Assembly: GCF_003334355.1 (NCBI RefSeq)
Contig: NZ_QOWP01000025.1
From: Escherichia coli
GTDB taxonomy: Bacteria > Pseudomonadota > Gammaproteobacteria > Enterobacterales > Enterobacteriaceae
Reading direction: 5' to 3' (one strand)
Length of the DNA stretch: 57,529 nucleotides
A model generated the notes under the pieces. It was not told the origin of the DNA. It made no database searches and saw only the letters and a program-made list of their open reading frames with translations. This document shows, piece by piece, positions 54,265 to 54,521 of this stretch (position 1 is the stretch's first letter; each line of letters begins with the position of its first letter). The position numbers and the translations under genes are program-made.

Positions 54265-54367
54265 TCACATTCCCCTGGTTTTTGTGGCTGTTTTCGATGA
54301 ATTGAGAATAGCAACGATAATCTGATAAAAGAACCCGCTTAAATTTAATTCGCCGTATCTCGCCTTT

Positions 54368-54388
54368 TTGTTGAATAATATTCAACAA
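54368..54388. promoter_or_regulatory. 21-bp palindrome TTGTTGAATAATATTCAACAA in the yahD/yahC divergent intergenic region; candidate operator
   Basis: Perfect 10-bp arms around a central base, between divergently oriented gene sets. Confidence 0.45.
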
Positions 54389-54521
54389 TCTTTTCGCAGT
54401 GTGCGGTAGTGCAATATTTGTTTCTTTGACCCGATACCCTTTCACTCAATCAGGTTTTATTTCTCTATAGTCTGCACATGTAAGAGTAGCTTTCGTCCAT
54501 GTCTAACCAGAGGGGAACAAG

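Follow-up and report, generated by a model that had tools for sequence, protein, structure and literature searches.

The 257-bp gap between the divergently transcribed Escherichia coli genes yahD and yahC contains a perfect palindrome, which raises the question of whether this sequence is an operator and, if it is, for which protein. We analyzed it in a 57,529-nt (57.5-kb) stretch of E. coli DNA (contig NZ_QOWP01000025.1), referred to below as the window, and at the equivalent place in the orthologous loci of other genera. Literature searches on yahB, yahC, yahD and yahE-J brought up no study of function or binding for the region. The reading that we favor, at a probability of about 0.68 judged from sequence comparison, is that the palindrome is the primary operator of YahB, a LysR-type regulator encoded beyond yahC, and that it controls transcription of yahD and possibly of yahC/yahB.

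A single palindrome and its alleles in E. coli

The sequence at 54368-54388 reads TTGTTGAATAATATTCAACAA, with 10-nt arms that are 100% complementary around one central base (TTGTTGAATA-A-TATTCAACAA), exactly as an earlier note on this DNA had described it. In K-12 MG1655 (NC_000913.3), it occupies positions 335156-335176. It is the only perfect inverted repeat in the window with arms of at least 10 nt and a spacer of 0-3 nt. Dinucleotide shuffles of the window contained 0.23 such repeats on average, and 18.5% of the shuffles contained at least one; taken alone, a palindrome with 10-bp arms in 57.5 kb is weakly unusual and not significant. Given this chance expectation, the argument for a function must therefore rest on conservation across genera. 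At a threshold of at least 9 nt per arm, six palindromes are listed in the window against 1.06 expected, one of the six being a second reading of 54368-54388. Four others have perfect 9-bp arms: TATCACTTATTTAAGTGATA (26-45), CCATAGCAATGTTGCTATGG (7454-7473), GCCACCATTGGAATGGTGGC (16280-16299) and GTCTGGCGCGCGCCAGAC (16557-16574).

No second copy of the palindrome within 3 mismatches was found in the window. The 37-bp stretch 54360-54396 that includes it is single-copy in E. coli (median one place per genome, maximum two), and the palindrome does not show the multiple copies that mark a REP element, a MITE or the inverted-repeat end of an insertion sequence. The surrounding 401-bp region is found at no less than 95% identity in 5085 of 5426 complete E. 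coli genomes, where it is annotated as yahD/yahC.

The perfect symmetry holds for the window but not for E. coli in general, since it is specific to the K-12-type allele, carried by about 30% of the complete genomes. Among 5078 E. coli records of the 37-bp stretch, 1540 are at least 99% identical to the window and 3528 differ from it at two positions. Two genomes sampled from this two-difference class read TTGTTGAATGATGTTCAACAA, with 8-bp arms, a 5-nt centre and G at both 54377 and 54380; Escherichia sp. E1V33 also reads TTGTTGAATGATGTTCAACAA. The A at 54380 of the K-12-type allele is the majority base across genera (60 of 77 loci, see below). In E. coli Res13-Lact-PEA14-20 (L084), an IS1 element is inserted at the centre of the palindrome and replaces the yahD side.

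The yahB/yahD divergent pair across genera

A scan for YahB in one genome per species yielded 80 loci, 77 of which had enough flanking sequence for comparison. The genera include Escherichia, Citrobacter, Kluyvera, Raoultella, Klebsiella, Enterobacter, Leclercia, Lelliottia, Serratia, Buttiauxella, Atlantibacter, Trabulsiella, Yokenella, Cedecea and Providencia, as well as Aeromonas cavernicola, and the YahB orthologues are 79-99% identical across them. In all 77 loci yahD is divergent from yahB, and it is usually followed by yahE, yahF and yahG. In E. coli, yahC and yahB follow each other rightward on the plus strand (Table 1), and pdeL lies beyond yahB.

The gene yahC is a variable part of this arrangement. 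It is present in Escherichia, Kluyvera, Raoultella, Klebsiella spallanzanii, Pseudocitrobacter and a few others, and absent from Citrobacter, Enterobacter, Serratia, Buttiauxella, Providencia, Aeromonas and others. In the 54 loci without a tblastn match to yahC, no gene lies between yahB and yahD, and yahB directly faces yahD across 178-760 bp. The usual yahB/yahD arrangement is a classical LysR-type divergent pair, and yahC looks like a later insertion into this older pair because the most distant genera lack it. The location proposed originally, a yahD/yahC divergent promoter region, thus applies to E. coli, whereas the more general pair is yahD/yahB. Apart from yahB, no regulator gene was seen linked to the site across genera; pdeL is adjacent only in Escherichia.

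Several other features of the loci were noted. No yahE homologue was detected between yahF and yahD, where the gap is about 140 bp, in loci of Enterobacter, Leclercia, Lelliottia, Silvania and Huaxiibacter (L034, L036-L056, L058, L062 and L076). YahE corresponds to the third subunit of oxamic transcarbamylase and, where present, its identity is 37-63%, far below the conservation of YahF and YahG. The YahB, YahF and YahG proteins of Aeromonas cavernicola (L065) and Providencia (L072-L077) are 77-87% identical to those of E. coli, which is above the usual level for genera as distant as these and suggests, as far as protein identity can indicate, horizontal spread of the whole yah unit. In the O157:H7 strain PA20 (L082), yahC is annotated as a frameshifted pseudogene.

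Table 1 Genes and candidate regulatory elements of the yahD-yahB region (window coordinates).
Feature	Position	Strand	Description
yahD	53659-54264	-	Ankyrin-repeat protein; first gene of the leftward yahD-E-F-G cluster; proposed target
Candidate extended -10 of yahD	54305-54313	-	TGcTATTCT, inside the conserved block GAGAATAGCAAC (54304-54315)
Site 2	54335-54355	.	CCGCTTAAA-N4-ATTCAnCG; centre ~54346; 12 invariant or near-invariant columns
Site 1 (primary dyad)	54367-54389	.	23 bp, centre 54378; contains the 21-bp palindrome 54368-54388
Block between site 1 and yahC	54400-54419	+	TGTGCGgtaGTGCAAtaTTT (TGTGCG-N3-GTGCAA-N2-TTT); conserved with and without yahC
yahC	54522-55019	+	DUF1097 membrane protein; between the regulatory region and yahB in only some genera
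Site 3	55011-55035	-	GGGTATTAAAAGTTATTCAAAAATG, TTAAA-N5-TTCAA; centre 55023
yahB	55111-56043	+	LysR-type regulator, 310 aa; proposed binding protein

A symmetric 23-bp element conserved in all loci

A dyad of the same type is found at the equivalent place in 77 of 77 loci, covering about 20 genera. Alignment of the 77 distinct sequences gives the consensus ATTGTTGAAt-N3-aTTCAACAAT, a 23-bp unit (site 1) whose leftmost base is T in E. coli versus A in 73 of the loci. Six positions (T54368, T54369, T54372, A54374, T54382 and A54385) are each the same in 77/77. The information content is highest in the outer arms (about 1.7-2.0 bits) and falls to 0.35-1.1 bits in the centre, where positions 54376-54380 are variable; the best-conserved bases are ATTGTTGA and TCAACAAT (ATTGT and ACAAT, 54367-54371 and 54385-54389). 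The position matrix of site 1 correlates with its own reverse complement at r=0.92, compared with a maximum of 0.54 when the columns are permuted. Perfect arms of 10-12 bp also occur in Serratia oryzae, Serratia sp. DD3 and three Buttiauxella species. The dyad typically lies 100-125 bp from the yahD start codon, and farther away in genera with longer leaders.

The manner in which the arms vary bears on the possibility that the conserved feature is a nucleic-acid structure, either a DNA cruciform or hairpin or an RNA stem in the yahC leader. The K-12 allele does fold as a 9-bp DNA hairpin (-6.6 kcal/mol, z-score -5.4). However, most E. coli carry the allele with 8 paired positions and a 5-nt loop, the stem is AT-rich, a scan of 54150-54650 detected no terminator-like feature, and there was no Rfam match at E<=1. 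Across the 77 loci, moreover, pairs are often broken and the substitutions in the two arms are independent, with no compensatory covariation: the pair 54370/54386 is GC in 32 loci, AC in 22, GT in 17 and AT in 4, the pair 54373/54383 is GC in 38 and GT in 38, and four inner or middle pairs are complementary in only 36-48 of the loci. Independent changes in the arms combined with two-fold symmetry indicate half-sites read by a symmetric protein dimer, not a hairpin, and we regard a structural role as highly improbable. That site 1 binds some symmetric regulator is much more certain than the assignment of this regulator as YahB.

Within site 1, a T-N11-A core, TGAATAATATTCA, spans 54372-54384, with the A at 54384 present in 70 of 77 loci; T-N11-A is the box of the LysR family. 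The earlier note had also pointed to a resemblance, at a different spacing, between the palindrome core, TGAAT-N3-ATTCA, and an ArgR box. ArgR operators are tandem pairs of 18-bp boxes, TGAAT-N4-ATTCA, placed about 3 bp apart. An ArgR operator variant would account for the half-sites TGAAT and ATTCA, which are the ARG-box cores, and would suit a cluster that encodes a carbamate kinase-like protein. This comparison fails on three points. The spacing is N3, not N4, in the window and in 77/77 loci; there is no second box alongside, as neither a copy within 3 mismatches nor an adjacent match to the matrix was found; and the strongest conservation falls outside the ARG core. We therefore consider ArgR a very poor candidate, and TGAA-N5-TTCA appears better read as a LysR-type box than as an ARG box.

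Promoter-side blocks at fixed spacing

Between site 1 and yahD, two further blocks are conserved (Table 1). The block nearer to yahD contains TGcTATTCT, the probable extended -10 element of the yahD promoter, as judged from its conservation and from the known consensus; a C just before the -10 hexamer, which this sequence has, is typical of sigma-S promoters. The other block is site 2, whose centre is 32 bp away from that of site 1. Its similarity to the dyad is partial (TTAAA-N5-TTCnn), and it scores about -18 bits with the site 1 matrix. From its position and this partial similarity, we propose that site 2 is an activation-site-like element beside the yahD -35 region.

All three block patterns were found in 73 sequences (72 loci and the window). 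In this set, the distance from the -10-like block to site 2 is 29 nt in 62 of 73 sequences, and that from site 2 to the dyad is 33 nt in 60 and 34 nt in 4. Between the -10-like block and the yahD ATG, the separation ranges from 34 to 116 nt. The fixed spacing of the blocks, together with the variable distance to the ATG, indicates that they form one promoter unit and not a translation signal. Transcription of yahD is predicted to start near 54298, which would place site 2 at about -48 (about -37 to -57) and site 1 at about -80. The candidate -35 hexamer of yahD, TTCTTT, is poor, and a scan of 54150-54650 with the sigma-70 promoter consensus did not detect a canonical -35/-10 pair. We also considered a sigma-54 promoter within the conserved blocks but rejected it by eye, as the GG/GC spacing is wrong.

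On the other side of site 1, the block TGTGCGgtaGTGCAAtaTTT may include an extended -10-like element, TGcAATATT (54410-54418), for rightward transcription to yahC/yahB. In a reporter study, promoter activity for yahC was detected somewhere in the region (bioRxiv 10.1101/2025.05.13.653802). Such promoter elements, overlapping a chance palindrome in an AT-rich intergenic region, might in principle be the source of its conservation; the 0.23 palindromes of this kind expected per window and the -10-like hexamers in the AT-rich centre of the K-12 allele would agree with that explanation. However, the -10-like centre is the least conserved part of the site, and two-fold symmetric conservation over 23 bp in about 20 genera, around a free centre, is unlike a -10 or a -35 element. 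Chance is thus an improbable account of the palindrome, and an operator is the reading that we retain.

A second dyad upstream of yahB

When the window was scanned with the site 1 matrix, the palindrome scored 32.1 bits and only one other position exceeded 7.1 bits. This position, site 3, scored 12.9 bits, and 0.04 hits as good are expected in shuffled windows. It overlaps the stop codon of yahC, and its centre lies 88 bp before the yahB ATG. A comparable match of more than 12 bits lies upstream of yahB in 18 of 80 loci, and the site is kept there with or without yahC, with the consensus GTGTTAAA-N5-TTCAAAACTGAT. Its retention in both arrangements indicates that the insertion of yahC left the upstream region of yahB in place. 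By its sequence and position, site 3 looks as an autoregulatory site would.

Two other sequences were seen in the vicinity. In genomes without yahC (L004, L012, L019, L021 and others), a CRP-like sequence, AAGTGTGATTGCCTTCAAATCA, is conserved upstream of yahB, about 40 bp farther upstream than the yahB-proximal dyad; the corresponding E. coli stretch falls within the 3' end of yahC and lacks this conservation. In the yahC-yahB gap, between site 3 and the yahB start, an 8-bp perfect inverted repeat is formed by ATTATCTA (55036-55043) and TAGATAAT (55088-55095), whose arms are 44 nt apart.

YahB as the candidate binding protein

Among family models, YahB best matches AllS (267 bits) and PunR (238 bits), in both cases below the curated cut-offs, and is therefore a distinct paralogue. 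Its closest named relative is AllS, with 39% identity. The helix-turn-helix region of YahB is nearly invariant across genera, which matches the invariant operator. The original suggestion that the palindrome is a candidate operator for YahB or another dimeric regulator is supported by its co-occurrence with yahB in 77/77 loci, by the fixed promoter spacing and by the half-sites with their T-N11-A core.

The linkage, however, was established in one direction, as the loci were gathered by searching for YahB. In the reverse test, the pattern ATTGTTGAA-N5-TTCAACAAT was searched in metagenome contigs, and 78 of 80 among the matches listed had no yah genes nearby; the matches listed were mostly on low-GC contigs, two were yah loci (L106 and L138), and the pattern is too short for this use there. 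A search with YahD homologues for distant clusters without yahB listed only close relatives, with at least 71% identity.

Co-occurrence in loci selected for the presence of YahB cannot by itself separate YahB from a widespread regulator, and the site could be a real operator for a different dimeric regulator encoded elsewhere, such as MetR or another regulator common to Enterobacterales and Aeromonas. MetR is also of the LysR type, its consensus is TGAA-N5-TTCA, and the E. coli site contains exactly this sequence, TGAA-TAATA-TTCA. Unlike a MetR box, though, site 1 is conserved for 4-5 bp past the MetR core on each side, and its most conserved positions, 54367-54371 and 54385-54389, lie outside that core. 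In the right half of that core, 39 of the 77 loci have TTCA and 38 have TTTA, and no link to methionine metabolism or the met regulon is apparent. Against any regulator encoded elsewhere stand the linkage of yahB, alone among the regulator genes seen, to the site and the dyad of like type just upstream of yahB, as autoregulation predicts.

The available binding data bear on the same question. ChIP-exo of YahB-8myc in glucose M9, the one published in vivo data set for YahB, gave three weak peaks, at ygjD, nlpI and yhcC, with a signal/noise of 1.3-2.0, and no peak at yahC/yahD (PMC8464067, Dataset S4), which speaks for a different regulator. This absence is a genuine negative result, although it could be explained by a missing effector, by low expression of yahB or by the C-terminal tag; in the RNA-seq table of the same study, yahB expression is low (PMC8464067). 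Weighing these points, we consider a regulator other than YahB unlikely, and YahB remains our preferred binder of site 1. The same work reports a YfeC peak with a signal/noise of 55.9 at 334131-334162, assigned to yahC (PMC8464067). The coordinates are apparently those of an older MG1655 version and would correspond to about 54606-54637 in the window, inside yahC and about 220 bp from the palindrome.

Comparison with characterized LysR-type systems

In the classical layout of LysR-type regulators such as CbnR, BenM and CatR, a recognition site lies near -65 and an activation site near or overlapping the -35 element. The yah region shares with this scheme a T-N11-A dyad between the regulator gene and a divergent catabolic operon, a second, less symmetric element nearer to the predicted -35 region and a weak candidate -35 hexamer consistent with dependence on an activator. 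It departs from usual LysR-type sites in the predicted centre at about -80 and the 32-bp distance between the elements, both at the long end, and in unusually long arms of 9-10 bp. Also unlike the classical layout, in E. coli yahC stands between the operator and yahB, and yahB has a separate dyad upstream. Overall, site 1 most likely represents a typical LysR-type operator, so far unreported, as its sequence features suggest.

The two closest families offer more specific comparisons. PunR (YdhB) has a validated 23-bp imperfect palindromic operator in the divergent punR-punC intergenic region, which was found by phylogenetic footprinting and validated by ChIP-exo, fluorescence polarization and gel shift; PunR bound DNA in vitro only with its effector, adenine, present (PMC8376909). 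The candidate YahB site resembles the PunR operator in its length of 23 bp, its odd AT-rich centre and its divergent intergenic location. The half-sites differ, being TCAA/TTGA in the PunR operator (TsttwTCAAwAwwwTTGaaGGCA) and ATTGTTGAA/TTCAACAAT in the YahB candidate.

AllS activates allFGHK, an operon for oxamic transcarbamylase and carbamate kinase (PMC12535856), whose products share family annotations with YahF, YahG, YahE and YahI. Unlike the yahB/yahD pair, allS is not adjacent to allD/allF. No YahB-type dyad was found in the allD-allF or allS-allA intergenic regions, where the best score was 5.7 bits; the lack of such a dyad in the all cluster indicates that the YahB and AllS operators have diverged. 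The best match to the YahB matrix within the allantoin cluster is ATTTGTTGAAAAAGGATTGATAATG at the ybbY-glxK junction (11.9 bits; K-12, L081 10867-10891), which is probably a chance hit. The 8-mer AATCCGCT is common to the allD-allF region and the site 2 consensus and may also be due to chance.

A model for YahB action and its significance

We hypothesize that the palindrome is the high-affinity recognition site of YahB, where the two winged helix-turn-helix domains of a YahB dimer would each recognize one half-site, ATTGTTGAA. Binding as a tetramer would extend the contacts to the block at 54335-54355, which lies 32 bp closer to yahD and would abut the weak -35 region of the extended -10 promoter at 54305-54313. 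Effector-bound YahB would then activate yahD-E-F-G and probably yahI-J, whereas the weaker site 3 upstream of yahB would provide autoregulation. Observed in this scheme are the conserved sequences with their spacing, the constant linkage of the dyad to yahB and the second dyad; YahB as the binder, the positions of the promoter and the start, the role of site 2 and whether YahB activates or represses are inferred.

A wider version of the model is doubtful, and we offer it tentatively. YahB and its operators (54367-54389, probably 54335-54355, and 55011-55035) might constitute the switch of an uncharacterised catabolic pathway, a paralogue of the AllS-controlled oxamate branch, with a carbamoyl-transferring YahEFG and the carbamate kinase YahI yielding ATP. 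Horizontal transfer might be spreading the whole unit through Enterobacterales and Aeromonas. In the K-12-type allele, the two G-to-A changes at the centre, which make the site perfectly symmetric and bring it nearer to the cross-genus consensus, might alter affinity, so that E. coli lineages would differ in the set-point of the operon.

As a class of element, the palindrome is not surprising: it is a useful but ordinary regulatory element. YahB and yahD-J are uncharacterised in E. coli K-12, and a deeply conserved candidate operator provides a concrete handle on them, as the site can serve as a probe in effector screens, as a target for mutagenesis and as the source of a matrix for finding further regulated genes. 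Because its closest relative, AllS, controls paralogous genes of the oxamate branch, the effector of YahB would probably reveal the substrate of YahEFG/YahI/YahJ as well.
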